A stretch of DNA of 64,000 nt from Escherichia coli (GTDB taxonomy: Bacteria; Pseudomonadota; Gammaproteobacteria; Enterobacterales; Enterobacteriaceae), in the NCBI RefSeq assembly GCF_048403405.1, contig NZ_CP183129.1; one strand, given 5' to 3'. The number at the start of each line of letters is the position of its first letter. The stretch's first letter is position 1. The translations under genes and the position numbers were made by a program. Below, in pieces: positions 16,980 to 47,013 of the stretch. Under the pieces are notes generated by a model. That model had not been told where the DNA came from, did not search any database, and saw only the letters and a program-made list of their open reading frames with translations.

Positions 16980-17069
16980 GCGATCAGGAAGACCCTCGCG
17001 GAGAACCTGAAAGCACGACATTGCTCACATTGCTTCCAGTATTACTTAGCCAGCCGGGTGCTGGCTTTT
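16980..17069 (+). ncRNA. ryhB: RyhB small RNA (Fur-repressed, iron-sparing regulator)
   Basis: gcgatcaggaagaccctcgcggagaacctgaaagcacgacattgctcacattgcttccagtattacttagccagccgggtgctggctttt matches recalled RyhB; ends in a GC hairpin plus U-run; lies between yhhY and yhhX. Confidence 0.9.
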
Positions 17070-17190
17070 TTTTGATCTTTCGTTTTCAATTTATCCACGG
17101 GAAGTGCTTGTGTTCGTTATGCGCACTCCAGTAGGAACCACGTCCGCTTTGCGCTAAGGTGTAAATAATCACCTTAAAAAGGACGAAATC

Positions 17191-20934: not shown

Positions 20935-22275
20935 GTGACTACATTAACGCTTGTTTTAACAGCAGTAGGGTCTGTTTTACTGCTGCTGTTTTTAGTCATG
21001 AAGGCGCGTATGCACGCTTTCCTGGCTTTGATGGTGGTGTCCATGGGGGCTGGCCTTTTTTCCGGTATGCCGCTCGATAAAATCGCAGCGACGATGGAAA
21101 AAGGGATGGGAGGCACCCTCGGCTTCCTGGCGGTGGTTGTCGCCCTGGGAGCTATGTTTGGCAAGATCTTACATGAAACTGGCGCAGTCGATCAGATTGC
21201 CGTCAAAATGCTCAAATCCTTCGGTCACAGCCGCGCGCATTATGCCATCGGCCTTGCGGGGCTGGTCTGTGCGCTACCGCTGTTCTTTGAAGTGGCGATT
21301 GTTCTGCTGATTAGCGTTGCTTTCTCAATGGCGCGCCACACCGGTACGAACCTGGTGAAGCTGGTAATCCCATTATTCGCAGGCGTGGCGGCCGCGGCGG
21401 CATTCCTGGTACCGGGGCCAGCGCCAATGCTGCTGGCATCGCAGATGAATGCCGACTTTGGCTGGATGATCCTGATTGGCCTGTGTGCGGCAATTCCGGG
21501 AATGATTATTGCCGGGCCGCTGTGGGGTAATTTCATCAGCCGCTACGTGGAGTTGCATATTCCTGACGACATCAGCGAACCACATCTCGGTGAAGGCAAA
21601 ATGCCGTCCTTCGGATTCAGCCTGTCGCTGATCCTGTTGCCACTGGTGCTGGTGGGGCTGAAAACCATTGCCGCGCGTTTTGTGCCAGAAGGCTCTACCG
21701 CTTACGAATGGTTCGAGTTTATTGGTCATCCGTTTACCGCGATTCTGGTTGCTTGTCTGGTGGCGATTTACGGCCTGGCGATGCGTCAGGGTATGCCGAA
21801 AGATAAAGTGATGGAAATTTGCGGTCACGCGCTGCAACCGGCGGGGATCATTCTGCTGGTGATTGGTGCAGGCGGCGTGTTCAAACAGGTGCTGGTTGAC
21901 TCTGGCGTAGGTCCGGCACTGGGCGAAGCGTTAACCGGCATGGGCCTGCCGATTGCCATCACCTGCTTCGTGCTGGCCGCTGCAGTGCGCATCATTCAGG
22001 GGTCTGCAACCGTTGCCTGTTTAACGGCGGTGGGACTGGTGATGCCGGTTATTGAACAACTGAACTACTCCGGTGCGCAAATGGCGGCGCTGTCGATTTG
22101 TATCGCCGGTGGTTCGATTGTTGTCAGCCACGTTAACGACGCCGGTTTCTGGTTGTTCGGTAAATTTACCGGCGCGACTGAAGCCGAAACGCTGAAAACC
22201 TGGACCATGATGGAAACCATCCTCGGCACTGTCGGTGCCATCGTTGGGATGATTGCGTTCCAGCTGTTGAGTTAA
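20935..22275 (+). CDS. gntU: Low-affinity gluconate:H+ symporter GntU (GntP family)
   Basis: 446 aa polytopic membrane protein, paralogous to the gntT product at 61054..62370. Confidence 0.92.
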   Translation: MTTLTLVLTAVGSVLLLLFLVMKARMHAFLALMVVSMGAGLFSGMPLDKIAATMEKGMGGTLGFLAVVVALGAMFGKILHETGAVDQIAVKMLKSFGHSRAHYAIGLAGLVCALPLFFEVAIVLLISVAFSMARHTGTNLVKLVIPLFAGVAAAAAFLVPGPAPMLLASQMNADFGWMILIGLCAAIPGMIIAGPLWGNFISRYVELHIPDDISEPHLGEGKMPSFGFSLSLILLPLVLVGLKTIAARFVPEGSTAYEWFEFIGHPFTAILVACLVAIYGLAMRQGMPKDKVMEICGHALQPAGIILLVIGAGGVFKQVLVDSGVGPALGEALTGMGLPIAITCFVLAAAVRIIQGSATVACLTAVGLVMPVIEQLNYSGAQMAALSICIAGGSIVVSHVNDAGFWLFGKFTGATEAETLKTWTMMETILGTVGAIVGMIAFQLLS

Positions 22276-22285
22276 TTACTGCGAC

Positions 22286-22315
22286 AAATTACTGCGAGCT
22301 TGCTCGCAGTAATTC
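22286..22315 (+). terminator. Perfect palindrome after gntU (terminator-like, no U-tract)
   Basis: ttactgcgagc-tt-gctcgcagtaa; also a direct repeat of attactgcga (22275-22284 and 22289-22298). Confidence 0.4.
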
Positions 22316-22412
22316 ATTTCTCTTTTCACCTGTCTTCATCTTTTTGATCTTTCTCGCAAAAAGACCGGAACATTATCCGTTCTAATCACTGCGTTAACGG
22401 ACGAGGGAGAAG

Positions 22413-24512
22413 ATGATGGAGAAACACGGAGCTGAATTGCTTTTACAGCGGATGTTAGGAAATACCACCGCTACTTTCAGGGAAGGGCAATGGGAAGCCA
22501 TAGATGCAGTGGTTAATCAGCGGCGAAAACTGCTGGTTGTACAGCGCACCGGCTGGGGGAAAAGTGCCGTGTACTTCATCGCCAGTAAAATCTTCCGAGA
22601 TCGCGGCGCTGGCCCGACAATTATCATCTCTCCTTTGCTTGCCCTGATGCGTAACCAGGTTGCCGCCGCTGAACGGTTAGGTATTACGGCTGAAACGTTG
22701 AATTCTACAAACAGGGAAGAATGGCAGCGCATTAGCGATAAGTTGCTGCAAGGTGAGGTCGATTGCTTGCTGGTTTCCCCGGAACGTTTGGCAAACCAGG
22801 ACTTTATCGAAACGGTTTTGTATCCTATAGCCGATCGTATTGGCTTGCTTGTTGTCGACGAGGCGCACTGCATCTCTGATTGGGGCCACGATTTTCGCCC
22901 GGATTACCGACGTATATTAGATATTTTGCGCCAACTGCCTGCGAATACCCCTGTTCTGGGTACAACCGCGACAGCGAATAACCGTGTTGTTGAGGATATC
23001 CGTCAGCAATTGGGTGACATTGTGATTCAGCGTGGAACGCTGGCTCGCGAAAGTTTGGCGCTTGATGCCTTAGTCTTAGGAGAACAGTCATCCCGTCTGG
23101 CATGGTTAGCAACGGTTATCCCTCAGTTTTCCAAATCGGGAATTGTTTATACCCTGACGACTCGCGATGCTGAACTTGTCGCCGAGTGGTTAAGGAAAAA
23201 TGGTATCAGTGCATTTGCTTACTACAGCGGCGTGACTTGTGAAGGCGCGGAAGATTCTAATACTGCCAGGGAATATCTGGAGCAGGCACTGCTGGCAAAT
23301 AAAATCAAAGTGCTGGTCGCGACGACGGCATTAGGTATGGGGTTTGATAAACCTGATTTAGGTTTCGTCATTCATTATCAGATGCCGGGGTCTATTGTCG
23401 GTTACTACCAACAGGTGGGGCGTGCCGGGCGTGCTATAGATTCCGCAGTTGGCATATTGCTTTGTGGTGGTGAAGACCGCGCTATTCATCAATTCTTCCG
23501 TGAAAGCGCCTTTCCTGCGGAGGCGCAAATTCATGAAATACTCAACGTACTTAGCGAGAATGACGGTCTTACCCTACGAGGCATTGAACAACGGACGAAT
23601 CTTCGTTATGGGCAAATAGAAAAAGCACTGAAATTATTGGTAGCGGAAAATCCATCGCCTGTGGTGTATACCGAGAAATTATGGCGCAGAACTATCGTCA
23701 GTTTTTCTCCTGATCATGAACGAATTAACCATTTGATGAATCAGAGAAAAAGTGAGCTGGCAGACGTTGAAAGCTATATCACGACCAAGGAGTGCAAAAT
23801 GCAATTTCTGCGCCGTGCACTCGATGAGCCAAGTGCCGAACGTTGTGGTAAATGTAGTAGTTGTCTTCAGCATCCGTTATTGTCGCCCGACATTGATAGC
23901 GGCTTACTCCATGCGGCAAATTTATTTATTAAACACGCTGACCTGCCGTTAAATCTCAATAAACAGGTGGCAGCTGGGGCTTTTACGCAATACGGATTTA
24001 AAGGGAACTTGCCTGCGGGTTTACAAGGATCTACGGGGCGAATCCTTTCTCGTTGGGGAGATTCCGGGTGGGGAAAGCAGGTAGCACAGGAGAAAAAAAC
24101 GGGGCGCTTCAGTGATGAGCTGGTAGAAGCATGTGCGGAAATGGTTCGCCAACGCTGGAATCCGCATCCTGAACCAACCTGGGTATGCTGCGTTCCTTCA
24201 TTAAGACACCTCGACCTGGTTCCTGATTTTGCCCGGCGACTGGCGGCGAAACTTGGCTTACCTTTTATTGATGCCATTGAAAAAGTCGTGGACAATCCAC
24301 CGCAGAAAATGCAGCAAAACCGTTTTCACCAGTGTCAAAATCTCGACGGGGCGTTTGTGATTACCCCTCCTTTGATGCCAGGTCCGGCGTTGCTGGTTGA
24401 CGATATCGTGGATTCTGCATGGACGCTGACAGTTCTGACAGCACTGTTACGCCAGGCAGGTTGCCCGACGGTTTATCCTCTTGCCCTTGCTTCTACCTCG
24501 GTAAAAAATTGA
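22413..24512 (+). CDS. RecQ-family DNA helicase with C-terminal PRTase-like extension (699 aa); candidate toxin/effector of a PsyrTA/RqlHI-like module
   Basis: Motif 0 FREGQWEAI, Walker A TGWGKS, DEAH box VVDEAHCISDWGHDFRPDY, LGTTATA, HYQMPGSIVGYYQQVGRAGR; Zn-binding Cys cluster CKMQFLRRALDEPSAERCGKCSSC; C-terminal LLVDDIVDSAWTLTVL resembles a degenerate PRPP-binding loop. RBS GAGGGAGAAG before ATG. Not present at this locus in K-12. Confidence 0.85.
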   Translation: MMEKHGAELLLQRMLGNTTATFREGQWEAIDAVVNQRRKLLVVQRTGWGKSAVYFIASKIFRDRGAGPTIIISPLLALMRNQVAAAERLGITAETLNSTNREEWQRISDKLLQGEVDCLLVSPERLANQDFIETVLYPIADRIGLLVVDEAHCISDWGHDFRPDYRRILDILRQLPANTPVLGTTATANNRVVEDIRQQLGDIVIQRGTLARESLALDALVLGEQSSRLAWLATVIPQFSKSGIVYTLTTRDAELVAEWLRKNGISAFAYYSGVTCEGAEDSNTAREYLEQALLANKIKVLVATTALGMGFDKPDLGFVIHYQMPGSIVGYYQQVGRAGRAIDSAVGILLCGGEDRAIHQFFRESAFPAEAQIHEILNVLSENDGLTLRGIEQRTNLRYGQIEKALKLLVAENPSPVVYTEKLWRRTIVSFSPDHERINHLMNQRKSELADVESYITTKECKMQFLRRALDEPSAERCGKCSSCLQHPLLSPDIDSGLLHAANLFIKHADLPLNLNKQVAAGAFTQYGFKGNLPAGLQGSTGRILSRWGDSGWGKQVAQEKKTGRFSDELVEACAEMVRQRWNPHPEPTWVCCVPSLRHLDLVPDFARRLAAKLGLPFIDAIEKVVDNPPQKMQQNRFHQCQNLDGAFVITPPLMPGPALLVDDIVDSAWTLTVLTALLRQAGCPTVYPLALASTSVKN

Positions 24513-25714
24513 TGAATCTTTCAGCCAATGCACAAGCAACCCTCCTGCTAACCAGCGATTTTTCTCGCGCGGCGGCGAGTGAGTATAAACCTCTTAGTAA
24601 TAGTGAATGGGGGAAGTTTGCATTATGGCTGAAGCACCAACGTATCAGTCCCGCCGATCTTCTGGTGCCGCAACCGCAAGAGAAACTTACAGGCTGGAGC
24701 GATCCGCGTATTTCTCAGGAGCGTATTCTTGGCTTGCTGGCGCGTGGTCATAGTCTGGCGTTGGCGGTAGATAAGTGGCAACGCGCCGGATTATGGATCT
24801 TAACCCGCGGAGATGCCGATTATCCCGTTCGCTTGAAAAACCGATTGCGAACGGATGCTCCTCCCGTTTTATTTGGCTGCGGGAATAAAGCATTATTGCA
24901 AGCGGAAGGTATGGCGATTGTTGGCTCGCGAGATGCTCCGACTGCCGATTTGCGCTATACCCAACAACTGGCAGCGAAACTGGCCCAACAGGGGATTTGC
25001 GTTATCTCTGGTGGTGCGCGAGGTATTGATGAATGTGCAATGGCGTCGGCACTGGAGGCCGGGGGAACTGCCGTTGGCGTATTAGCTGATAGTTTGTTAA
25101 AAACAAGCACGTTAGTGAAATGGCGTAAAGGGCTTATAGCAGGCAACCTGGTGTTGATTTCACCGTTTTACCCAGAGGTACGTTTCACTGTCGGCAATGC
25201 GATGGCGCGGAATAAATATATTTATTGCCTTGCTGAAAGCGCAATGGTTGTACGTGCGGGAATGACCGGTGGAACGATAACCGGAGCGATGGAGGCGTTA
25301 AAACATCAGTGGCTGCCTGTTCTGGTTAAACCAAATCAGGATGTGCAATCAGCCAATTCACGTTTAGTAGAAAATGGGGCGTCATGGAGTGCTGAACAGG
25401 CTGAGAATGTGACGATCAGACTGCCAGATGTTCCTGGGCTGATGTATGACAGAGCACTCCGTAACGCTCAACCAGAATTGTTTTCGCTGCACGAAGATGA
25501 CGCAAATTACGCAGTAATGCCCGCGCATACCCCTGTCGATTTTTATCAACTCTTTGTGGCGGAACTGGCGATCCTTGCAAAGGAATCGATAAGTATTGAA
25601 AGGCTGGCGTCTTGTACTGGTTTAACCATCGAACAAATTAGTGTGTGGCTGAACCGCGCAGAAGAAGAGGGAAGGGTTATCCGATTGGGCGAAGGTCATT
25701 ATCAGTTCAGGTAA
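24512..25714 (+). CDS. DprA/Smf-like (SLOG-superfamily) protein (400 aa); candidate antitoxin/partner
   Basis: ORF 24419..25714; ATG at 24512 (MNLSANAQ...) overlaps the helicase TGA by 1 nt. DprA hallmarks: DADYPVRLKNRLRTDAPPVLFGCGNKALL, Rossmann segment IVGSRDAPT...ISGGARGIDECAM, C-terminal winged-helix-like region. Confidence 0.85.
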   Translation: MNLSANAQATLLLTSDFSRAAASEYKPLSNSEWGKFALWLKHQRISPADLLVPQPQEKLTGWSDPRISQERILGLLARGHSLALAVDKWQRAGLWILTRGDADYPVRLKNRLRTDAPPVLFGCGNKALLQAEGMAIVGSRDAPTADLRYTQQLAAKLAQQGICVISGGARGIDECAMASALEAGGTAVGVLADSLLKTSTLVKWRKGLIAGNLVLISPFYPEVRFTVGNAMARNKYIYCLAESAMVVRAGMTGGTITGAMEALKHQWLPVLVKPNQDVQSANSRLVENGASWSAEQAENVTIRLPDVPGLMYDRALRNAQPELFSLHEDDANYAVMPAHTPVDFYQLFVAELAILAKESISIERLASCTGLTIEQISVWLNRAEEEGRVIRLGEGHYQFR

Positions 25715-25716
25715 TA

Positions 25717-25754
25717 AAACAGGTGCCGCGTCTGGTTGTGTGCAGCACCTGTTT
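25717..25754. terminator. Hairpin between the convergent DprA-like gene and yhgN
   Basis: aaacaggtgc-(loop)-gcacctgttt inverted repeat. Confidence 0.45.
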
Positions 25755-25759
25755 GAACC

Positions 25760-34823: not shown

Positions 34824-37289
<2,466 letters not shown>

Positions 37290-38598: not shown

Positions 38599-39351
38599 AT
38601 GAGATGGATTTCAAAAAATAAATGTTTTTCGAATAGAAACATTAATTCTTTGCTGAAGACCCAATATATCATAAGGGCCGGTGCTCTATTTTTACTATCC
38701 GCCATATCTATCAATGCTATTGCTGCGGGTGGCTTCGGTCTTGGTTCTACGCGTCTGGTTTATCCATCTGACAGTCAGCAAATTACGCTAAGTGTACAGA
38801 ATGGTGGGGCTAACACCAGCTATTTAATCCAGTCATGGATTGATGACAATCAAAGCAGTAAAAAAAGTCAGGATTTTGTGGTTACGCCTCCTTTATTTAT
38901 GTTACCAACGCGAAAAGAAGCCTCATTGAGGATAATGTTTATTGGTAAATCACAGTTACCGACTGATCGCGAAACATTATTCTGGATGAATGTGAAAGCG
39001 ATTCCGCCAACGGATGAGAAGAATACCCAGAAAAACACGTTACAACTGGCGTTACAAAACAGAATTAAATTATTTTACCGTCCGACTAATTTACCCGTTC
39101 AAGCTGGTAAAGCACGGGATATGCTGCGATTTAAATACGAAGGTAAACAGCTAAGAGTCATTAACCCTTCTCCCTATTATCTGACGGTGACTGGAATCAG
39201 GGTGCAAGGGGCAAAATTACCCAATGCGTTTGTTCCACCGAAAAGTGACGTAACAGTGTCTTCACCAGTGATGCTAGCCGGTGAAATTACTTATCAAACT
39301 ATCAATGATTACGGTGCCACAACGGCCAGGCAAAAGGGAACGATGCAATAA
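38599..39351 (+). CDS. Periplasmic fimbrial chaperone (PapD-like)
   Basis: 250 aa; conserved chaperone segments LGSTRLVYPSDSQ and NRIKLFYRP. Confidence 0.85.
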   Translation: MRWISKNKCFSNRNINSLLKTQYIIRAGALFLLSAISINAIAAGGFGLGSTRLVYPSDSQQITLSVQNGGANTSYLIQSWIDDNQSSKKSQDFVVTPPLFMLPTRKEASLRIMFIGKSQLPTDRETLFWMNVKAIPPTDEKNTQKNTLQLALQNRIKLFYRPTNLPVQAGKARDMLRFKYEGKQLRVINPSPYYLTVTGIRVQGAKLPNAFVPPKSDVTVSSPVMLAGEITYQTINDYGATTARQKGTMQ

Positions 39352-39392
39352 ACCTGGAAGATTAAAACGTTAAAGCAACTCAGGTCAGGGAT

Positions 39393-41984
39393 ATGAACCT
39401 AAAGCTCAGAAAACTCGAACACAGGATGGCAAGGCAGAAGCAGATGAGGCGGTGTATGCTGCTTCTACTGACACTTTTGCCTGCGTGTTCAGTGGCGGGT
39501 ATGCGCTTTAACCCTGCATTCCTGTCGGGTGATACAGAAGCTGTTGCTGATTTATCTCGTTTTGAGAAAGGGATGACATATCTACCTGGTAGTTATGAGG
39601 TTGAAATATGGGTCAATGATTCGCCTTTGACATCACGTAAGGTTACTTTCAAAGCTGATGAGCAGAATCAGTTGATCCCCTGTTTTTCGCTCGATGAGTT
39701 AGTTACTTTAGGAATTAACAAAAGTGCATTGCCGGAACAGGCGCAAGCAGAGGGAAATAATTGTCTCGATTTACGTATATGGTTCGCAGAAGTTCAATAC
39801 ACTCCTGAACTGGATGCGCAACGACTCAAACTGACCTTTCCGCAGGCAATATTAAAGCATGAAGCCCGTGGTTATATTCCACCTGAGGAATGGGATAATG
39901 GTATCCCGGCCATTCTTATTAATTATGATTTTTCTGGCAACAGTGATCGTGGAGACTATGCGTCTGATAGTTATTATTTAAATCTCCGTTCAGGTTTAAA
40001 TTTAGGGGCGTGGCGTTTTCGTGATTATTCTACATGGAGTCGTTCAGGTAATTCACCGGGTAAAATTGCACATGTGAGTAGTACGTTACAACGAGTAATT
40101 ATTCCTTTTAAAAGTGAATTAACACTAGGTGATACCTGGTCTTCATCGGATGTTTTCGACAGTGTGAGTATTCGTGGTGCTAAACTTGAATCCGATGAAA
40201 ACATGCTACCCGATAGCCAAAGTGGTTTTGCCCCCACTGTGCGCGGTATTGCTAAAAGCAATGCTCAGGTAACGATCAAACAAAATGGCTATGTTATTTA
40301 TCAGACATATACTCCACCGGGACCCTTTGAAATCAACGATCTGAACCCTACGTCTTCCGCTGGGGATTTGGAAGTTACGATCAAAGAGTCTGATAATTCC
40401 GAAACTATCTATACCATTCCTTACGCCGCTGTTCCCATTCTTCAACGCGAAGGGCATATTAAATATTCGGCAACTGCCGGTAAATATCGTAGCAATAGCT
40501 ATAATCAAAACAGTCCGAATGTCTTTCAAGGAGATTTGATTTGGGGGTTACCCTGGGATATTACCGCCTACGGAGGGATGCAATACTCAAATAATTATCG
40601 GGCAATAGCACTCGGGCTTGGGTTCAACCTTGGTATGTTTGGTGCGACGTCATTTGATTTAACGCAAGCCAATAGCACGCTTGCCGATGGCAGTAAACAT
40701 CAAGGGCAATCGTACCGTTTCCTATATTCAAAATCGTTAGTGCAGACAGGTACGGCTTTTCAGATTATTGGTTATCGCTATTCGACGGAGGGATTTTATT
40801 CGTTGAGTGATACCACATACAAACAAATGTCGGGTACGGTTATCGATCCAGATACCCTTAATGAAAAAGACTATGTTTATAACTGGAATGATTTTTATAA
40901 TTTACGTTATAACAAAAGAGGAAAGTTTCAGGCAAATATATCGCAACCATTGGGCGAATATGGCTCTATGTATTTGGCGGCAAGTCAACAAACTTACTGG
41001 AATACGAATAATAAAGATACCTTGTATCAGGTCGGCTATAATACGAGTGTACATGGGATTTATTTAAATATTGCTTATAATTATAGTAAGTCACCAGGTT
41101 CAGATGCGGACAGAATCTTATCCGTAAATGTCTCATTGCCGATCAGCAATTGGTTATCACCAGCTGTCGATGGGCGTACTGCGACAAATTCTATGACAGC
41201 AACTTATGGTTATAGTCAGGATAATAGCGGTCATGTAAATCAGTATGCCGGAGTATCTGGATCGCTGCTGGAACAACATAATCTCAACTATAATATTCAA
41301 CAAAATTTTGCCAACCAGAATAATGGCGAAAATGGCTCGGTAGGGATAAATTACCGTGGTACATATGGTTCACTAAATTCTGGATACAGCTACGATAATA
41401 ATGGTAACCAGCAATTTAACTATGGTTTAAGTGGTGCCCTGGTTATTCACGAAAATGGTCTCACGTTAAGCCAGCCGTTAGGAGAAACAAATATACTGAT
41501 AAAAGCACCTGGGGCAAACAATGTAAATGTGGAACGCGGAACGGGGGTTAAAACAGACTGGCGTGGCTATGCTGTCGTACCTTATGCCACGGAATATCGG
41601 CGTAATAATATCTCTTTAGACCCTATGTCTATGAGTATGCATACAGAATTAGATGCTACTACTATGGAAGTGATACCCAGCAAAGGTGCTTTAGTTCGTG
41701 CTGAGTTTAATGCACATGTCGGTATTCGAGGTTTATTTAATGTTCATTATCGTAATAAACCAGTTCCATTTGGTGCGACGGTCAGTGTACCCACTGAGGG
41801 GACAACTCAGATTACAGGAATAGTGGGTGACAGTGGACAGGTTTATCTCTCCGGTTTGCCTTTACAAGGCATAATAAATATACAGTGGGGAGAAAGTTCT
41901 TATCAGCAATGTCGGGCAAACTATCAATTACCGGAAAGTGAGTTGGATAATGCCATTAGCTATGCAAATCTGGAGTGCCGCTAA
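39393..41984 (+). CDS. Outer membrane fimbrial usher protein
   Basis: 863 aa; N-terminal FNPAFL usher motif; beta-rich, size typical of ushers. The exact start within the first ~35 codons is uncertain. Confidence 0.88.
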   Translation: MNLKLRKLEHRMARQKQMRRCMLLLLTLLPACSVAGMRFNPAFLSGDTEAVADLSRFEKGMTYLPGSYEVEIWVNDSPLTSRKVTFKADEQNQLIPCFSLDELVTLGINKSALPEQAQAEGNNCLDLRIWFAEVQYTPELDAQRLKLTFPQAILKHEARGYIPPEEWDNGIPAILINYDFSGNSDRGDYASDSYYLNLRSGLNLGAWRFRDYSTWSRSGNSPGKIAHVSSTLQRVIIPFKSELTLGDTWSSSDVFDSVSIRGAKLESDENMLPDSQSGFAPTVRGIAKSNAQVTIKQNGYVIYQTYTPPGPFEINDLNPTSSAGDLEVTIKESDNSETIYTIPYAAVPILQREGHIKYSATAGKYRSNSYNQNSPNVFQGDLIWGLPWDITAYGGMQYSNNYRAIALGLGFNLGMFGATSFDLTQANSTLADGSKHQGQSYRFLYSKSLVQTGTAFQIIGYRYSTEGFYSLSDTTYKQMSGTVIDPDTLNEKDYVYNWNDFYNLRYNKRGKFQANISQPLGEYGSMYLAASQQTYWNTNNKDTLYQVGYNTSVHGIYLNIAYNYSKSPGSDADRILSVNVSLPISNWLSPAVDGRTATNSMTATYGYSQDNSGHVNQYAGVSGSLLEQHNLNYNIQQNFANQNNGENGSVGINYRGTYGSLNSGYSYDNNGNQQFNYGLSGALVIHENGLTLSQPLGETNILIKAPGANNVNVERGTGVKTDWRGYAVVPYATEYRRNNISLDPMSMSMHTELDATTMEVIPSKGALVRAEFNAHVGIRGLFNVHYRNKPVPFGATVSVPTEGTTQITGIVGDSGQVYLSGLPLQGIINIQWGESSYQQCRANYQLPESELDNAISYANLECR

Positions 41985-42547
41985 TGAATATATTACAAAA
42001 ATTTATTCTATTAATGTTTAGATCATTGTTCATGATGGTGATTTCATATAACGCACTGGCTAACGATACTGTAGTGGTCACATTTACAGGACAATTATTA
42101 GCGAAAACGTGTGATATTACAACTGGAAGTAAAGACCAGCCAGTAAACATGGGAACTTATGACGTCAATGATTTTTTGAATGTAGGGGATGTTTCTGGCA
42201 GCCATACATTTACGATCAATCTGGAAGGATGTCCTACAACAACCAGTACTGTTTATAGTTCAGGAGTAAGTGCTAATGTGCAGTTTACCGGGGATGCTGA
42301 TGCTATAAATACCACTTTATTACGCCTTACTTCCAGCGCGGATAGTGCAACTGGAGTGGGCATCGAAATTTTAGACAGTAATGATAAAATTATAGCAATT
42401 AATAGTGAATCAGGATTCAAAGAGTTAATTTTAAATAATAATGGCGATGCCAGTTTAACCTTTAAACTCCGCTATAAGTCAACTCAGCAAAACGTACATG
42501 CGGGACAGGCGAACGCACTATTGTACTTTGATATAGACTATCAGTGA
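41984..42547 (+). CDS. Fimbrial minor subunit
   Basis: ORF 41975..42547 begins at GTG; ATG at 41984 overlaps the usher stop and gives signal peptide MNILQKFILLMFRSLFMMVISYNALA; pilin-like Cys pair. Confidence 0.78.
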   Translation: MNILQKFILLMFRSLFMMVISYNALANDTVVVTFTGQLLAKTCDITTGSKDQPVNMGTYDVNDFLNVGDVSGSHTFTINLEGCPTTTSTVYSSGVSANVQFTGDADAINTTLLRLTSSADSATGVGIEILDSNDKIIAINSESGFKELILNNNGDASLTFKLRYKSTQQNVHAGQANALLYFDIDYQ

Positions 42548-42554
42548 GGTTAAT

Positions 42555-43079
42555 ATGACACGATATTGGAATTTAATTGCCCTATTATTCTCTGTGATAT
42601 CTATGTCATCCATTGCTGATGATACAACGCATGCAGGTGTTGTACGCATCGAAGGAATTATAACAGCAAAGACTTGTATTGTTGCCGATGAGTCTAAAAA
42701 TTTCACAGTTAACATGCCTGATGTTCCCAGTTATACGGTGAGAAATTCAGGGAGTGTTACTGAAAAAATTGGCTTCTCTTTAAAGTTAACCCGTTGTGGC
42801 AGTGATGTCAGTAATGCCAATGTCACGTTTGATGGAATACCAGTTAGTGAAGACGCAGCCCTATATAAACTGGAAGAGGGCTCAGTCGATGGGTTAGCAC
42901 TGGCTATTTTTGATAACAACAGACAAAGTATTAGTAATGGTATAAAGAGTACAAGTTATGCCCTTACACCATTGGTAGATAATACATTGCATTTCTTTGC
43001 TGCTTATAAAGCTATAAAAAATGATGTACAACCAGGAGATGCGAATGCATCAGTTTCCTTTATCGTCACTTATGATTAA
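42555..43079 (+). CDS. Fimbrial minor subunit
   Basis: 174 aa with signal peptide MTRYWNLIALLFSVISMSSIA; pilin-like C-terminus SFIVTYD. Confidence 0.78.
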   Translation: MTRYWNLIALLFSVISMSSIADDTTHAGVVRIEGIITAKTCIVADESKNFTVNMPDVPSYTVRNSGSVTEKIGFSLKLTRCGSDVSNANVTFDGIPVSEDAALYKLEEGSVDGLALAIFDNNRQSISNGIKSTSYALTPLVDNTLHFFAAYKAIKNDVQPGDANASVSFIVTYD

Positions 43080-43824
43080 CGTGCTGATATGCATTTTAAT
43101 ATGTTGCACAAATGCGCAGGCAGGAGTTGTTGTTGGCGGTACTCGTTTTGTTTACCCAGAAAAGCAGTCATCAATTTCGGTCGAGCTTAAAAATACTGCC
43201 AGTAAAGATATGCTGGTTAAAATTTCCGTGACACCTGATGATGGACGTCAGTTAAAAGGGACACTGGAATCCCAGCCTTTACTTCCAGATAAGGCGTTTA
43301 TTGCCACACCACCATTATTGGTACTTAAACAAGATAAAAATACCAAAATAAGAATCAATCGCGTGGGGGGGCAGTTACCTATAGATCGTGAGAGTTTATT
43401 TATACTGAATATTGCAGCGTTACCTGCTCAGGAACAAAACTCACAGCTTAAGAATGAAAATCAACTCCAGGTGGCTGTACGTAATAGGATGAAAATATTT
43501 TACCGCCCAGAGACGTTATCAGGTAATCCACTTGACGCTTATCAACAGTTACGCTGGTCGCGAAACAATGAAGCTGTCACCGTTTTTAACCCTACGCCCT
43601 GGTATGTGACACTCTATAATTTATCTATTGATGGTAAAAGCATAAATGGTGGCATGGTTGCACCATTTAGTCATCGCCAACAGGATTGGTGTCAGCGGCA
43701 AGGATATTGTGAGATTAACTGGCAAACACTAGATCTTTACAATAATGCCTTACCCGTATGGAGCGTAAAATTAAATGTTTTACAAAATAATGCTATTATG
43801 GGTGCAGTAGCGATACATGGATAA
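43045..43824 (+). CDS. Second periplasmic fimbrial chaperone (PapD-like)
   Basis: ORF 43021..43824; ATG at 43045 follows AGGAGA and gives MHQFPLSSLMINVLICILICCTNAQA; motifs GGTRFVYPEKQ and NRMKIFYRP. Confidence 0.82.
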   Translation: MHQFPLSSLMINVLICILICCTNAQAGVVVGGTRFVYPEKQSSISVELKNTASKDMLVKISVTPDDGRQLKGTLESQPLLPDKAFIATPPLLVLKQDKNTKIRINRVGGQLPIDRESLFILNIAALPAQEQNSQLKNENQLQVAVRNRMKIFYRPETLSGNPLDAYQQLRWSRNNEAVTVFNPTPWYVTLYNLSIDGKSINGGMVAPFSHRQQDWCQRQGYCEINWQTLDLYNNALPVWSVKLNVLQNNAIMGAVAIHG

Positions 43825-43834
43825 CTGGAGAAGC

Positions 43835-44968
43835 ATGATGCTTACTTATTTTTGGGGGAATATAAAAGCAATTTGTATATTGTTTGTTCTTTTAGTCAGT
43901 AGCTGCTATAACATAGTATATGCTGAAGATATGGGACGGGATCGCGCCTTTTGTTATCCTGGTGCACCAGGTAATAATACTACTCCTGCGACATTTTCTT
44001 ATAATTTTGGTACGGTAATTGTCTCAGATGTTAATAATAATTCGCCTGGGACAGTATTACCCTCGCAGGACTGGAAAATAGGGCATTATAAGGCTTATTG
44101 TAATTCTCTGGATGATTATGAGGTTTATTTTTCTGGTGTTTCTGGGATTGATCCGTCAGGAGCGTCTGGTGATCATCAGGGGAGCGATATATTTATTCCT
44201 TTGACTCATGAAATATCTGTCTCGACACATGTAAAGCTCTATAATAAAAATGGCACAATGACAGATAAGGCAGTACCTTTTGACAACTATAGCACCAATT
44301 ATCCAGCAGACAGAAGTAAACCATCAAGTTGGGCCTCAGGAACAGAAGGTTATATAAAAATCAGACTTGATAAAAAAATAATATCCGATATCTCAATAAA
44401 TAACGTATTGCTGGTTTCTTTGTATGTCAGCCAGTTTCCAACAGAGCACGGACCAATTCCAGTATTTAATGCTTATATTGGCAACTTAAATATTGAAGTT
44501 CCACAAGGTTGCACAATTAATGAGGGAACTAGTTTTACCGTTAATATGCCGGATGTCTGGGCCAGCGAATTAAGTCGGGCTGGTGCTGGAGTAAAACCAA
44601 CAGGTATTTCTCCAGTGGCAACCACTATTCCGATAAATTGTACGAACAAAGATATTGATGCCGTAATGACGCTGGTTTTCGATGGCAATATTTCATCAAC
44701 GAGAGATGTTAATGGTCGGCAAAGCATTATTCAGGCGGAGGATAACCCCGACGTTGGCATTATGATTATGGATAGCCAACAGGAATCCGTAGACTTAAAT
44801 GCATTGGCTGCGCATGTTGGTGTGCCATTTAAGTTAGTTGAAAACCAGGCTGAGTCAGCTCAGACGGCAGATGTGACTTTTCTGTCTCTCCCTGTAAGTA
44901 CCACAGGGCGACGCCCTGCTGCAGGCCGTTATAATGCCCTGGCTGTTTTGCGGGTGGAATACCAATGA
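43835..44968 (+). CDS. Putative fimbrial tip adhesin (two-domain pilin-like, about 377 aa)
   Basis: ORF 43817..44968; start likely MMLTYFWGNIKAICILFVLLVSS at 43835; size and terminal position fit a lectin-plus-pilin adhesin. Start uncertain by up to 6 codons. Confidence 0.7.
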   Translation: MMLTYFWGNIKAICILFVLLVSSCYNIVYAEDMGRDRAFCYPGAPGNNTTPATFSYNFGTVIVSDVNNNSPGTVLPSQDWKIGHYKAYCNSLDDYEVYFSGVSGIDPSGASGDHQGSDIFIPLTHEISVSTHVKLYNKNGTMTDKAVPFDNYSTNYPADRSKPSSWASGTEGYIKIRLDKKIISDISINNVLLVSLYVSQFPTEHGPIPVFNAYIGNLNIEVPQGCTINEGTSFTVNMPDVWASELSRAGAGVKPTGISPVATTIPINCTNKDIDAVMTLVFDGNISSTRDVNGRQSIIQAEDNPDVGIMIMDSQQESVDLNALAAHVGVPFKLVENQAESAQTADVTFLSLPVSTTGRRPAAGRYNALAVLRVEYQ

Positions 44969-45312: not shown

Positions 45313-45419
45313 TGCCGGATGCGACGTGAACGTCTTATTGGCCTACAAAATCATGCAAATTCAATATATTGCATAAACCACGTAGGCCTGATAAGCGTAG
45401 CGCATCAGGCAGTTTTTTT
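45313..45419. repeat. REP/BIME element with trailing T-run (terminator-like on + strand)
   Basis: tgccggatgcgacgtgaacgtcttattggcctac ... gtaggcctgataagcgtagcgcatcaggc followed by agttttttt. Confidence 0.6.
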
Positions 45420-45474: not shown

Positions 45475-46980
45475 TCACGAAGCCAGCGATAACCTCTGCT
45501 GCGTATACTCCACTAGCCACTGACTCACACGAGATTGTTGATCCGCATTCAGCCACATGCCTTGTTTTGTGCGACGCCACAGGGCATCGTCGGCACGGCG
45601 GACCCATTCGTGATCCACCAGGTATTTCAGTTCCGCTTCGTAGAACTCATGACCGAAATCCTCCCCGAGGTCGCTTATCGCCCCCGCATTGCCGAGCAGC
45701 AGTTCGCTGTTGCTGCCGTAGGTGCGCGCGTAGTGACGTGCCAGCGATTCGGTCAGGAATGGGTAACGGCGGCGCAGGCGAGCGGCATAATCGTCGCGGT
45801 CGCCTTCAATGGCACCACCCGGCAGCACGCTCTCTTTCGTCCACGCCGGGCCAATACCCTGATAATATGGCGTCAGTTTTTCCAGCGCATGTTCCGCCAG
45901 TTTGCGGTAGGTCGTCAGCTTACCGCCGAATACCGACAGCAGCGGCGCTTTGCCGTTTTCATCATGGATATCAAGCGTGTAATCACGAGTAATAGCCTGC
46001 GGCGAGTCGGACTCATCATCACATAGCGGACGCACGCCGGAGTAGGTCCAGACGATATCGTCCCGGCTTAACTGCTTTTTAAAGTGCGTGTTATACACTT
46101 TCAGCAGGTAATTGATTTCACTCTCTTCAATCTTCACGGCTTTCGGATCACCTTTGTATTCCACATCGGTGGTGCCGATGATGGAAAACTCGTCCATCCA
46201 CGGGATCACGAACACAATACGTTTATCTTCGTTTTGCAGAATGTAGGCTTGCTTCTGGGTATGTACGCGTGGCACTACAATATGGCTGCCTTTGATCAGG
46301 CGAATGCCATAAGGCGAAGGCAGATGCATCCCCTCGTCGAAGAACTGTTTCACCCACGGGCCGGTGGCGTTCACGAGGCCGCGCGCTTGCCAGCTATATT
46401 TTTTGCCGGTATCGATATCTTCCGCTTCCACAATCCACAGGCCGTTTTCGCGGCGAGCAGAAGTGGCACGAGTACGGGTAAGCACTTCACCGCCTTTACG
46501 CACCACCATCTGGGCGTTGGCGAGTACCAGACGGGCGTCGTCTACCCAACAGTCGGAATATTCGAATCCGCGCTTAATTTCCGGTTTTAATACTGAATTT
46601 GCGCCAAAACGCAAACCGGTTGATCCCGGTAGGCTGGTGCGTTTACCCAGATGATCGTACATAAACAGACCAATCCGAATCATCCACGCCGGGCGCAGAT
46701 GCGGACGATGCGGCAGGCGAAAACGCATCGGGAAGGCGATATGCGGGGCCATTTTCAGCAGCACTTCACGTTCAGCCAGCGCCTCGCTGACCAGGCGGAA
46801 TTCATAGTGCTCAAGGTAGCGTAGGCCACCGTGAATGAGTTTTGAACTGGCGGAGGAGGTCGCGCAAGCGAGATCCTGCGCCTCCAGCATCAGCACGGAT
46901 AAACCGCGTCCAGCGGCGTCTGCCGCGATACCAGCACCATTGATGCCGCCACCTATCACAATCAGATCTTTGGTTTCCAT
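45475..46980 (-). CDS. glpD: Aerobic glycerol-3-phosphate dehydrogenase GlpD (501 aa)
   Basis: ORF 45475..46995; native start taken at METKDLIVIGGGINGAGIAADAAGRGL (FAD-binding GxGxxG). Confidence 0.93.
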   Translation of the reverse strand: METKDLIVIGGGINGAGIAADAAGRGLSVLMLEAQDLACATSSASSKLIHGGLRYLEHYEFRLVSEALAEREVLLKMAPHIAFPMRFRLPHRPHLRPAWMIRIGLFMYDHLGKRTSLPGSTGLRFGANSVLKPEIKRGFEYSDCWVDDARLVLANAQMVVRKGGEVLTRTRATSARRENGLWIVEAEDIDTGKKYSWQARGLVNATGPWVKQFFDEGMHLPSPYGIRLIKGSHIVVPRVHTQKQAYILQNEDKRIVFVIPWMDEFSIIGTTDVEYKGDPKAVKIEESEINYLLKVYNTHFKKQLSRDDIVWTYSGVRPLCDDESDSPQAITRDYTLDIHDENGKAPLLSVFGGKLTTYRKLAEHALEKLTPYYQGIGPAWTKESVLPGGAIEGDRDDYAARLRRRYPFLTESLARHYARTYGSNSELLLGNAGAISDLGEDFGHEFYEAELKYLVDHEWVRRADDALWRRTKQGMWLNADQQSRVSQWLVEYTQQRLSLAS

Positions 46981-47013
46981 GCTGCCCTCATTCACTTTCG
47001 TTAAAGCTCATAA

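Follow-up and report, generated by a model that had tools for sequence, protein, structure and literature searches.

The gntU–yhgN cassette of Escherichia coli is the described rqlHI (PsyrTA) operon, probably an old chromosomal accessory allele

Introduction

The clade of RecQ-like helicases with a C-terminal PRTase was founded on RqlH of Mycobacterium smegmatis, a 3'-5' helicase (Ordonez et al. 2012, PMC3378886). In E. coli, rqlH forms an operon with rqlI, which was described by Russell & Mulvey 2015 in the extraintestinal pathogenic strains F11, CFT073 and 536 (PMC4670107). The two genes are co-transcribed, as determined by RT-PCR in F11, and the toxicity and neutralisation of the F11 proteins were assayed by expression in MG1655. 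RqlH without RqlI is genotoxic and causes SOS induction, filamentation, a raised mutation rate and loss of viability. This toxicity requires the PRTase residue D663 and is abolished by the exchange D663A, whereas helicase-dead mutants are still toxic; the K/D motif mutants of that study were modelled on M. smegmatis RqlH. The isolated PRTase domain is non-toxic. Neutralisation is achieved by physical binding of RqlI to RqlH, and the restraint of the PRTase domain is aided by RqlH's own helicase activity. Deletion of rqlI in F11, CFT073 and 536 results in poor microaerobic growth and poor gut colonisation, phenotypes that vanish once rqlH is deleted as well. Russell & Mulvey prefer to see RqlH and RqlI as cooperating on DNA in a physiological role, beneficial and undefined, and they found that strains with rqlI also carry the canonical dprA (all PMC4670107). 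M. smegmatis RqlH, a distant orthologue, differs in that it has no RqlI partner, as is the case in nearly all Gram-positives.

Many Gram-positive bacteria possess rqlH without rqlI, and RqlH toxicity is therefore context-dependent. The identical architecture, with a RecQ-like helicase plus PRTase as toxin and a DprA-like protein as antitoxin, is also known as PsyrTA, a name derived from a Pseudomonas syringae pair. PsyrTA is said to have been introduced as a toxin–antitoxin (TA) pair by Sberro and colleagues in 2013. Millman et al. 2022 list PsyrTA (= RqlHI) among the phage-defensive TA systems and give a psyrA deletion as unobtainable (bioRxiv 10.1101/2022.05.11.491447), and defence-system catalogues class PsyrTA as abortive-infection-type phage defence. 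However, PsyrTA of E. coli NILS69 gave no detectable protection against the phages tested, neither by deletion in the native host nor by expression in K-12 (bioRxiv 10.1101/2024.12.20.629700). The ShosTA system resembles RqlHI in its DprA-like antitoxin, in its toxic domain, a PRPP-binding PRTase, and in the phenotype of filamentation and DNA damage. PRPP binding and toxicity of ShosT have been described (PMC11961720, PMC12961424); ShosT lacks a helicase, whereas RqlH is a helicase fusion.

Here we analysed a 64,000-nucleotide stretch of E. coli DNA (the window), in which a first-pass annotation, made from the sequence alone, had marked a two-gene cassette between gntU and yhgN as a candidate TA and anti-phage module.

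Results

Both proteins of the cassette matched the PADLOC models of PsyrTA over their full length. RqlH reached E = 0 and 1068 bits with PsyrT (PDLC03928; residues 3-698 to model positions 4-687 of 689), and RqlI 1.6e-201 and 668 bits with PsyrA (PDLC03927; residues 1-400 to model positions 1-397 of 398). CFT073 encodes the pair at the same gntU–yhgN site with 98.7% (RqlH) and 98.3% (RqlI) protein identity, the allelic differences being nine substitutions in RqlH, none of them in the motifs examined, and seven in RqlI. Adjacent on one strand, with the toxin gene first and overlapping the second, rqlH and rqlI are arranged in the PsyrTA gene order. The RqlHI systems of F11, CFT073 and 536 come from the same species and have the same order, the same overlap and the residues K49, D148 and D663, with the gntU–yhgN locus shared by CFT073; they differ in host strain and by allelic differences only. 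That is, the two-gene cassette is the published E. coli rqlH-rqlI operon, catalogued as PsyrTA. The first-pass annotation had pointed to the PsyrTA (RqlH/RqlI) class, an assignment borne out by the full-length PADLOC matches and by ~98.5% identity to CFT073/F11 rqlHI. What it called a candidate TA module is an already characterised system and not new; it is the E. coli system underlying the RqlHI name.

The same annotation had read the first gene as a 699-aa RecQ-family helicase with full motifs and a Zn-binding Cys cluster, and this description stands. The helicase motif set is complete, comprising Walker A (GWGKS at 47, K50), DEAH at 149 (D149) and motif VI (QxxGRxGR at 333, here QQVGRAGR). 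Pfam detected DEAD (5e-25), Helicase_C (4e-13) and, weakly, RecQ_Zn_bind, and residues 5-349 match the E. coli RecQ structure 1oyw with 2e-53. The four cysteines follow the spacing C461...C478-x2-C481-x2-C484 and are invariant in a four-way alignment. The partner, equally well recognised as a 400-aa DprA/Smf-like protein, matched DNA_processg_A (7.4e-50, aa 89-292) and SLOG cluster4 besides PsyrA. A faint HTH_26 match was obtained in addition, and a C-terminal HTH in RqlI is possible.

Taken on their own, the match of the core to E. coli RecQ and that of RqlI to DNA_processg_A would suit a housekeeping pair as well, consisting of a second RecQ helicase and the transformation protein DprA/Smf, and RefSeq names the products accordingly ('RecQ family ATP-dependent DNA helicase' and 'DNA-processing protein DprA'). 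We consider such a pair highly improbable. Both proteins fall far below the curated equivalog cut-offs: RqlH misses those of TIGR01389 (296 versus 640 bits) and PRK11057 (226 versus 1015) and passes only the broad recQ_fam (253 versus 220), while RqlI misses TIGR00732 (103 versus 191 bits) and PRK10736 (80 versus 495) and aligns only over its Rossmann/SLOG core (aa 89-292). The PsyrT and PsyrA models fit far better and at full length, RqlH has the PRTase tail where RecQ continues beyond the Zn-binding motif with a C-terminal region of its own, and the presence of a canonical dprA in rqlI strains (PMC4670107) as well as the absence of the cassette from 70% of E. coli, K-12 included, also speak against housekeeping genes.

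Membership in two other families was rejected. ShosA models match RqlI with 3.3e-27 (93 bits versus 668 for PsyrA) and the ShosA structure 9vzo with 6e-08, but RqlI is longer, with extra N- and C-terminal regions, and RqlH is a helicase fusion for which no ShosT model was found among the best 25 of the 39 PADLOC families that matched. Like RqlH, both E. coli RecQ and DpdF, a protein of the 7-deazaguanine DNA-modification system Dpd, have the RecQ-type SF2 core, whereas the PRTase tail is present in RqlH only; the DpdF score was 149 bits versus a cut-off of 550. Two short PADLOC 'DpdF' models (PDLC02869 and PDLC02866) match the RqlH tail and look like PsyrT-type fragments. The PDB copy searched held no structure of PsyrT or PsyrA.

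Sequence-only searches with the C-terminal 195 aa of RqlH against the PDB and NCBIfam returned PRTase, ComF and GntX matches that were all sub-threshold, and a test of the fold was therefore needed. We used an AF2 model of the tail (pLDDT 78.8, pTM 0.82) for a Foldseek search, in which the top 50 matches were all type I PRTases (APRT, PurF, HGXPRT, PyrR, PRPP synthetase) or ComF. At the level of the predicted model, the PRTase fold of the tail is confirmed. The PRPP-binding loop LLVDDIVDSAWT (aa 659-670, nt 24387-24422) is conserved in 17 homologues and carries D663 in the numbering of the literature (compare DIVD663 of F11 RqlH). Where the first-pass annotation had suspected a variant because of its PRTase-like tail, this tail is the defining domain of the RqlHI/PsyrTA family and the domain that toxicity requires.

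Table 1. Features of the rqlHI locus (positions in the window)
Feature	Position	Strand	Basis or remark
gntU-proximal palindrome	22274..22314	+	repeat copies, hairpin folding, conservation
rqlHI upstream region and 5' leader	22315..22412	+	degenerate repeat copy, Shine-Dalgarno 22403-22409
rqlH / psyrT ORF	22413..24512	+	699 aa counted from first ATG
Helicase core, aa 21-341, made up of RecA-like domains 1 and 2	22473..23435	+	Pfam; PDB match to E. coli RecQ 1oyw
Zn-binding Cys cluster C461, C478, C481, C484	23793..23864	+	RecQ_Zn_bind weak; Cys spacing
PRTase domain, aa 505-699	23925..24509	+	predicted fold; weak Pfam Pribosyltran; published D663A
rqlI / psyrA, DprA-like (SLOG/Rossmann) antitoxin	24512..25714	+	400 aa, MNLS start
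Hairpin between convergent rqlI and yhgN	25717..25754	.	folding of both strands; conservation

The features of the locus are listed in Table 1. Translation of rqlH probably starts at the second ATG (22416), yielding the 698-aa protein on which the numbering in RefSeq and the literature is based; the spacing of the Shine-Dalgarno sequence GAGGGAG suits this ATG better than the one at 22413. K49, D148 and D663 of PMC4670107 correspond to K50, D149 and D664 when counted from the first ATG. For rqlI, RefSeq annotates a longer form of 431 aa, counted from the first ATG of the ORF 24419-25714 (+). The conserved start is that of the 400-aa form, because the PsyrA alignment given above begins at its first residue and homologues begin with MN(L/V)S at the overlap. 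Since the rqlH stop codon TGA (24510-24512) and the rqlI ATG share one base (TGATG, 24510-24514), translational coupling is plausible, as had been proposed at first sight. The 1-nt overlap and the order of rqlH before rqlI are kept in every homologous locus that extends past rqlH.

Hairpins had been noted on both sides of the pair, and both fold with negative z. The one at 22287-22314, with a perfect 13-bp stem followed by a T-rich tail (dG -18.1, z = -5.2), is likely the gntU terminator. The one between rqlI and yhgN folds on the + strand (dG -22.7, z = -3.7) and on the - strand (dG -26.6, z = -5.4), is kept in CFT073 and O157, and likely serves as a bidirectional terminator. The gntU-proximal palindrome is built from copies of AATTACTGCGA, two direct (22274 and 22287) and one inverted (22304), and a degenerate fourth copy, AATCACTGCGT, lies at 22384-22394. 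The first 60 nt past the gntU stop are invariant across the window, CFT073 and O157. A sigma-70 consensus scan of the region upstream of rqlH (22315..22412) found no + strand site. Conceivably, the invariant AATTACTGCGA palindrome serves as an operator for autoregulation by the predicted RqlI HTH.

Comparing gntU–yhgN junctions across E. coli, as the first-pass annotation had suggested, we found the cassette in 1650 of 5426 complete genomes (30%), so the pair does not consist of universal core genes; ~70% of the genomes, including K-12, lack it. The remaining 3774 genomes with the locus all have the K-12-type empty junction, leaving two states only in 5424 genomes. In K-12, gntU is directly followed by yhgN, as the annotation had it, across a 56-bp spacer with a different hairpin. 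The 3.4-kb insert that it described is indeed absent from K-12, but a clean insertion with recognisable ends was not borne out. Because the whole spacer differs, the occupied and the K-12 junction are alternative alleles, one replacing the other.

The look of a 3.4-kb insertion when compared with K-12 and the hairpins at both ends would be expected of a recent mobile defence island in a variable gntU–yhgN integration hotspot, an origin that we rejected and hold to be scarcely credible. No alternative cargo was seen at gntU–yhgN in the 5424 genomes with their two junction states, and no integrase, transposase, direct repeats, target-site duplication or mobility genes were found at the cassette. 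Its GC content (~0.49-0.51) is like that of the surroundings, and the nearest relatives from outside the E. coli chromosome, detected by a degenerate DNA-pattern scan of genome contigs, are 60-67% identical and located at other genomic sites. The divergence of the cassette between phylogroups (97.4%) equals that of the core flanks (97.1-98.0%), which argues for an old resident and not a recent insert. The copy in the window lies between housekeeping flanks and outside any defence island, and none of the 5426 complete E. coli genomes contained a plasmid-borne copy. Apart from one Gordonia phage (two accessions) with a DprA-like gene that is only distantly related, the phage collection contained no PsyrA-like gene and thus gave no evidence of a phage-carried system. 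Judged by these comparisons, the cassette appears to be a long-standing accessory allele that is inherited vertically at one fixed position, not cargo of a mobile element.

In the O157:H7 allele, rqlH is dead and rqlI is intact.

Relatives from outside the E. coli chromosome are more distant. The closest of them mostly occupy the gap between hsdS and hsdR within type I R-M operons, as in the hsdMS-psyrTA-hsdR operon of plasmid NZ_OX030731, and one lies inside BREX-1. The hsdS-hsdR gap is the slot of the anticodon nuclease PrrC in EcoprrI. A full-text literature search found no description of the hsdS-[RecQ-DprA]-hsdR arrangement.

Discussion

Overall, the cassette is very probably best explained as chromosomal rqlHI/PsyrTA, a type-II/IV-like TA module that is maintained as an old, vertically inherited accessory allele with a silenced PRTase toxin. 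In the uninfected cell, the RqlH–RqlI complex would keep the PRTase domain inactive. When DNA metabolism is perturbed (phage replication intermediates, ssDNA), this may be sensed by the helicase, by the DprA-like partner through its ssDNA binding, or by both, upon which the PRTase would be released or re-targeted. Once freed, it would consume PRPP and disturb nucleotide or DNA metabolism, in possible resemblance to the related ShosT, for which PRPP binding and perturbed purine metabolism are the parallels, and replication of both host and phage would stall.

The module might instead be long domesticated, with a physiological role (DNA transactions, low-oxygen growth or gut colonisation) or a purely addictive, selfish one in place of phage defence, and with toxicity as a by-product of an unbalanced two-protein DNA-processing machine. 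The age and vertical inheritance of the allele, its single fixed site, its housekeeping flanks and the conserved expression of the cassette between strains are consistent with domestication, as are the NILS69 allele without detected anti-phage effect (bioRxiv 10.1101/2024.12.20.629700) and the ΔrqlI defects in microaerobic growth and gut colonisation, for which a cooperative function was proposed (PMC4670107). Yet these ΔrqlI phenotypes are lost when rqlH is co-deleted and therefore reflect an unleashed toxin, not a lost function. Furthermore, most E. coli genomes do without the cassette, rqlH has been lost in O157:H7, relatives sit within R-M and BREX systems, and the family is experimentally listed as defensive by Millman et al. 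2022 (bioRxiv 10.1101/2022.05.11.491447). We therefore regard domestication as unlikely, though as an explanation to be taken seriously.

Within the TA module reading that we prefer, activity against phage is unproven for the E. coli allele. The phage defence expected by the first-pass annotation agrees with what Millman et al. 2022 report for PsyrTA as a system, but not with the NILS69 allele of E. coli. Given the position of its relatives in R-M operons or BREX-1, it is conceivable, if rather doubtful, that the PsyrTA family primarily has the role of a 'guard' coupled with other restriction systems and that the stand-alone E. coli copy is an old derivative whose partner was lost. If this were true, loss of the partner could explain the absent phage protection by the lone E. 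coli copy.

The discovery value of the locus is low, given that its genetic characterisation dates from 2015 and that PADLOC and DefenseFinder detect the cassette routinely in E. coli. For the E. coli chromosome, our comparisons point to the gntU–yhgN site as an ancient polymorphism with strictly two states, and not a hotspot.

Identity of the cassette

We confirmed two same-strand ORFs between the gntU stop and the convergent yhgN stop (see table). In the profile search proposed by the first-pass annotation, both proteins matched PADLOC models: RqlH matched PsyrT (E = 0, 1068 bits, residues 3-698 on model positions 4-687 of 689) and RqlI matched PsyrA at full length (1.6e-201, 668 bits). The window is 100% identical to the blood isolate E. 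coli strain 4621, and in CFT073 the gntU-yhgN site is occupied by the same pair (protein identity 98.7% for RqlH, 98.3% for RqlI). Millman et al. list PsyrTA, 'also called RqlHI', among phage-defending toxin-antitoxin (TA) systems and were unable to obtain a psyrA deletion (bioRxiv 10.1101/2022.05.11.491447). Profile matches, CFT073 orthology and this synonymy bear out the PsyrTA/RqlHI reading of the first-pass annotation. Neither the family nor the locus is new: rqlH and rqlI were named and studied in F11, CFT073 and 536 (Russell & Mulvey 2015, PMC4670107).

Features of the window and their positions
Feature	Position	Strand	Remarks
RyhB sRNA	17009-17073	+	Rfam gathering-threshold match, 83 bits; between yhhY and yhhX as expected
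Repeat AATTACTGCGA	22274-22314		two direct copies, one inverted; immediately past gntU stop
gntU stop	22275
Hairpin, gntU side	22287-22314		13-bp perfect stem, then T-rich tail; z = -5.2
Degenerate copy AATCACTGCGT	22384-22394		just 5' of rqlH Shine-Dalgarno
Shine-Dalgarno GAGGGAG	22403-22409
rqlH ORF	22413-24512	+	699 aa from first ATG
rqlH second ATG	22416		start in RefSeq and literature numbering; 698 aa
RefSeq start, DprA-like gene	24419		431 aa; 93 nt upstream of 24512; 94-nt overlap with rqlH
rqlH stop TGA	24510-24512		1 base in common with rqlI ATG (24512)
rqlI ORF	24512-25714	+	400 aa, N-terminus MNLS
Hairpin, rqlI/yhgN side	25717-25754		z = -3.7 (+ strand), -5.4 (- strand)
yhgN stop	25760		convergent
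glgP	34842-37289
ORF run	~38599-44968		one ORF of 863 aa; between glgP and presumed glpD
ES036 (CssrF) sRNA	45347-45389	+	Rfam gathering-threshold match, 43.6 bits
glpD (presumed)	45475-46995	-

The predicted 400-aa start of rqlI is supported by sequence comparison, since the PsyrA profile pairs residues 1-400 with model positions 1-397 of 398 and since homologues of other species begin MN(L/V)S at the overlap. For rqlH, the Shine-Dalgarno spacing suits the second ATG better. Both hairpins described by the first-pass annotation as bracketing the cassette are real and far more stable than shuffled controls, against which the z scores were computed; the first is probably the terminator of gntU, the second a bidirectional one shared by rqlI and yhgN. 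The first 60 nt past gntU are identical in the window, CFT073 and O157, against a regional average of about 97% identity. Besides its probable terminator function, the AATTACTGCGA repeat region may be an operator for the RqlI HTH.

Domain composition and toxicity

Pfam assigned DEAD and Helicase_C to RqlH, with weak RecQ_Zn_bind and Pribosyltran matches, and DNA_processg_A (7.4e-50), SLOG cluster4 and a faint C-terminal HTH to RqlI. Neither protein is a bona fide member of the family it resembles, as RqlH scored 296 bits versus the curated NCBIfam equivalog cut-off of 640 for RecQ, and RqlI 103 bits versus 191 for DprA. RqlH comprises the full helicase motif set, and its four Zn-cluster cysteines and PRPP loop LLVDDIVDSAWT are kept in distant homologues. 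Because sequence matches to its phosphoribosyltransferase (PRTase) tail were sub-threshold, we modelled the fold of residues 505-699 from a 17-sequence alignment (pLDDT 78.8, pTM 0.82). The best 50 Foldseek matches in the PDB were all type I PRTases, PRPP synthetase, PyrR or ComF; no PsyrT or PsyrA structure was found in the PDB copy searched. The tail had been taken for a possible variant, but it is the canonical defining feature of PsyrTA. Two PADLOC models labelled DpdF, PDLC02869 (74 positions, 7.9e-54) and PDLC02866 (255 positions, 3.1e-18), matched only this tail; both have the look of PsyrT-type fragments, not of DpdF helicase domains, and mislabelling could result.

The two genes are co-transcribed, and RqlH without RqlI causes SOS induction, filamentation, mutagenesis and viability loss in ExPEC lacking rqlI and in MG1655 (PMC4670107). 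Toxicity depends on the PRTase domain, which is non-toxic by itself, and is abolished by D663A or DIVD663EVME, and the helicase-dead K49A and D148A proteins remain toxic; cells are rescued by RqlI, which binds RqlH (PMC4670107). Counted from the first ATG, K49, D148 and D663 are K50, D149 and D664 in the window.

Distribution and history in E. coli

The first-pass annotation had proposed comparing gntU-yhgN junctions across E. coli. The 3484-bp segment was found in 1650 of 5426 complete genomes, always chromosomal, nearly always full length and at 95-100% identity, and is hence not universal. A 341-bp probe for the K-12 junction matched as one continuous stretch in 3774 genomes and was split in all others. 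Since these counts sum to 5424, all the genomes having the locus, the site has exactly two states and is no variable hotspot. Relative to K-12 the extra genes are indeed present, but the whole K-12 spacer (56 bp, including a different hairpin) has nothing in common with the occupied allele. No repeats, integrase or transposase were found at the cassette ends in the window, and divergence from CFT073 equals that of the flanks (identity 97.4% for the cassette, 97.1% for gntU, 98.0% for yhgN, 97.8% for glgB). Together with an unremarkable GC content, the two-state site, unrelated spacer, unmarked ends and flank-like divergence argue for a long-standing presence/absence polymorphism passed on by vertical descent, and against a recent insertion.

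Some alleles have decayed. In the O157:H7-type allele (O157 strain 644-PT8, L007:6140-9466, corresponding to window 22413-25714), rqlH is a pseudogene: 1 bp is lost at window-equivalent 22931, 29 bp are duplicated at 24202, and both the first ATG and the Shine-Dalgarno are mutated. Its rqlI is intact (98.3% aa identity). This rqlH diverged faster (94.7% nt identity versus about 97.7% for rqlI and flanks). H21 carries an ISKpn26 insertion, and H30 a truncated copy.

Elsewhere in the window, the ORF run between glgP and the presumed glpD has a positional counterpart in CFT073, a chaperone-usher fimbrial cluster, the likeness being by position only. K-12 is not known to have anything there.

Relatives and a possible defence role

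A degenerate pattern for WVCCVPS-x5-LVPDFARRLAA matched 17 species-representative genomes, all Gammaproteobacteria (identity 60-67% for RqlH, 48-66% for RqlI); these are the pair's nearest relatives beyond the E. coli chromosome. None of these copies adjoins gntU or yhgN, and the rqlH-rqlI order is preserved wherever the contig extends far enough. In at least seven loci, a type I R-M operon encloses the pair, which fills the slot between hsdS and hsdR that PrrC occupies in EcoprrI. These loci (L004:2697-12776, L017, L019, L014, L016, L022 and L008) come from an E. coli IncF plasmid, Providencia rettgeri, Kluyvera cryocrescens, Chelonobacter oris and three MAGs; two more, L013 and L011, show partial traces. 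HsdM is 100% identical between the IncF plasmid and the P. rettgeri chromosome. On an Acinetobacter plasmid (L005:435-10091), a BREX-1 operon contains the pair between pglX and DUF262/pglZ. A haloarchaeal plasmid encodes a helicase-PRTase without DprA-like partner, echoing the published rqlH-only pattern. A full-text literature search for the hsdS-[RecQ-DprA]-hsdR arrangement found no paper on R-M or BREX nesting of the pair. The neighbours of the window cassette are purely housekeeping.

For RqlHI, the literature provides TA-like behaviour, PRTase dependence and physical RqlH-RqlI interaction (PMC4670107). The helicase and/or the DprA-like partner might detect aberrant DNA (ssDNA or intermediates of phage replication, for example) and would then release the PRTase; by analogy with ShosT, the freed domain could use PRPP and damage nucleotide or DNA metabolism. 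ShosT perturbs purine metabolism and causes filamentation, and its toxicity depends on PRPP binding (PMC11961720, PMC12961424). Deletion of PsyrTA in E. coli NILS69, or its expression in K-12, had no effect on the phages tested, which counts against a defence role of the E. coli allele; expression in K-12 caused a growth defect (bioRxiv 10.1101/2024.12.20.629700). An improbable reading is that PsyrTA works together with R-M or BREX systems as a guard, in which case the stand-alone E. coli copy would descend from such an arrangement. For the PsyrTA family as such, the R-M and BREX contexts support a role in defence.
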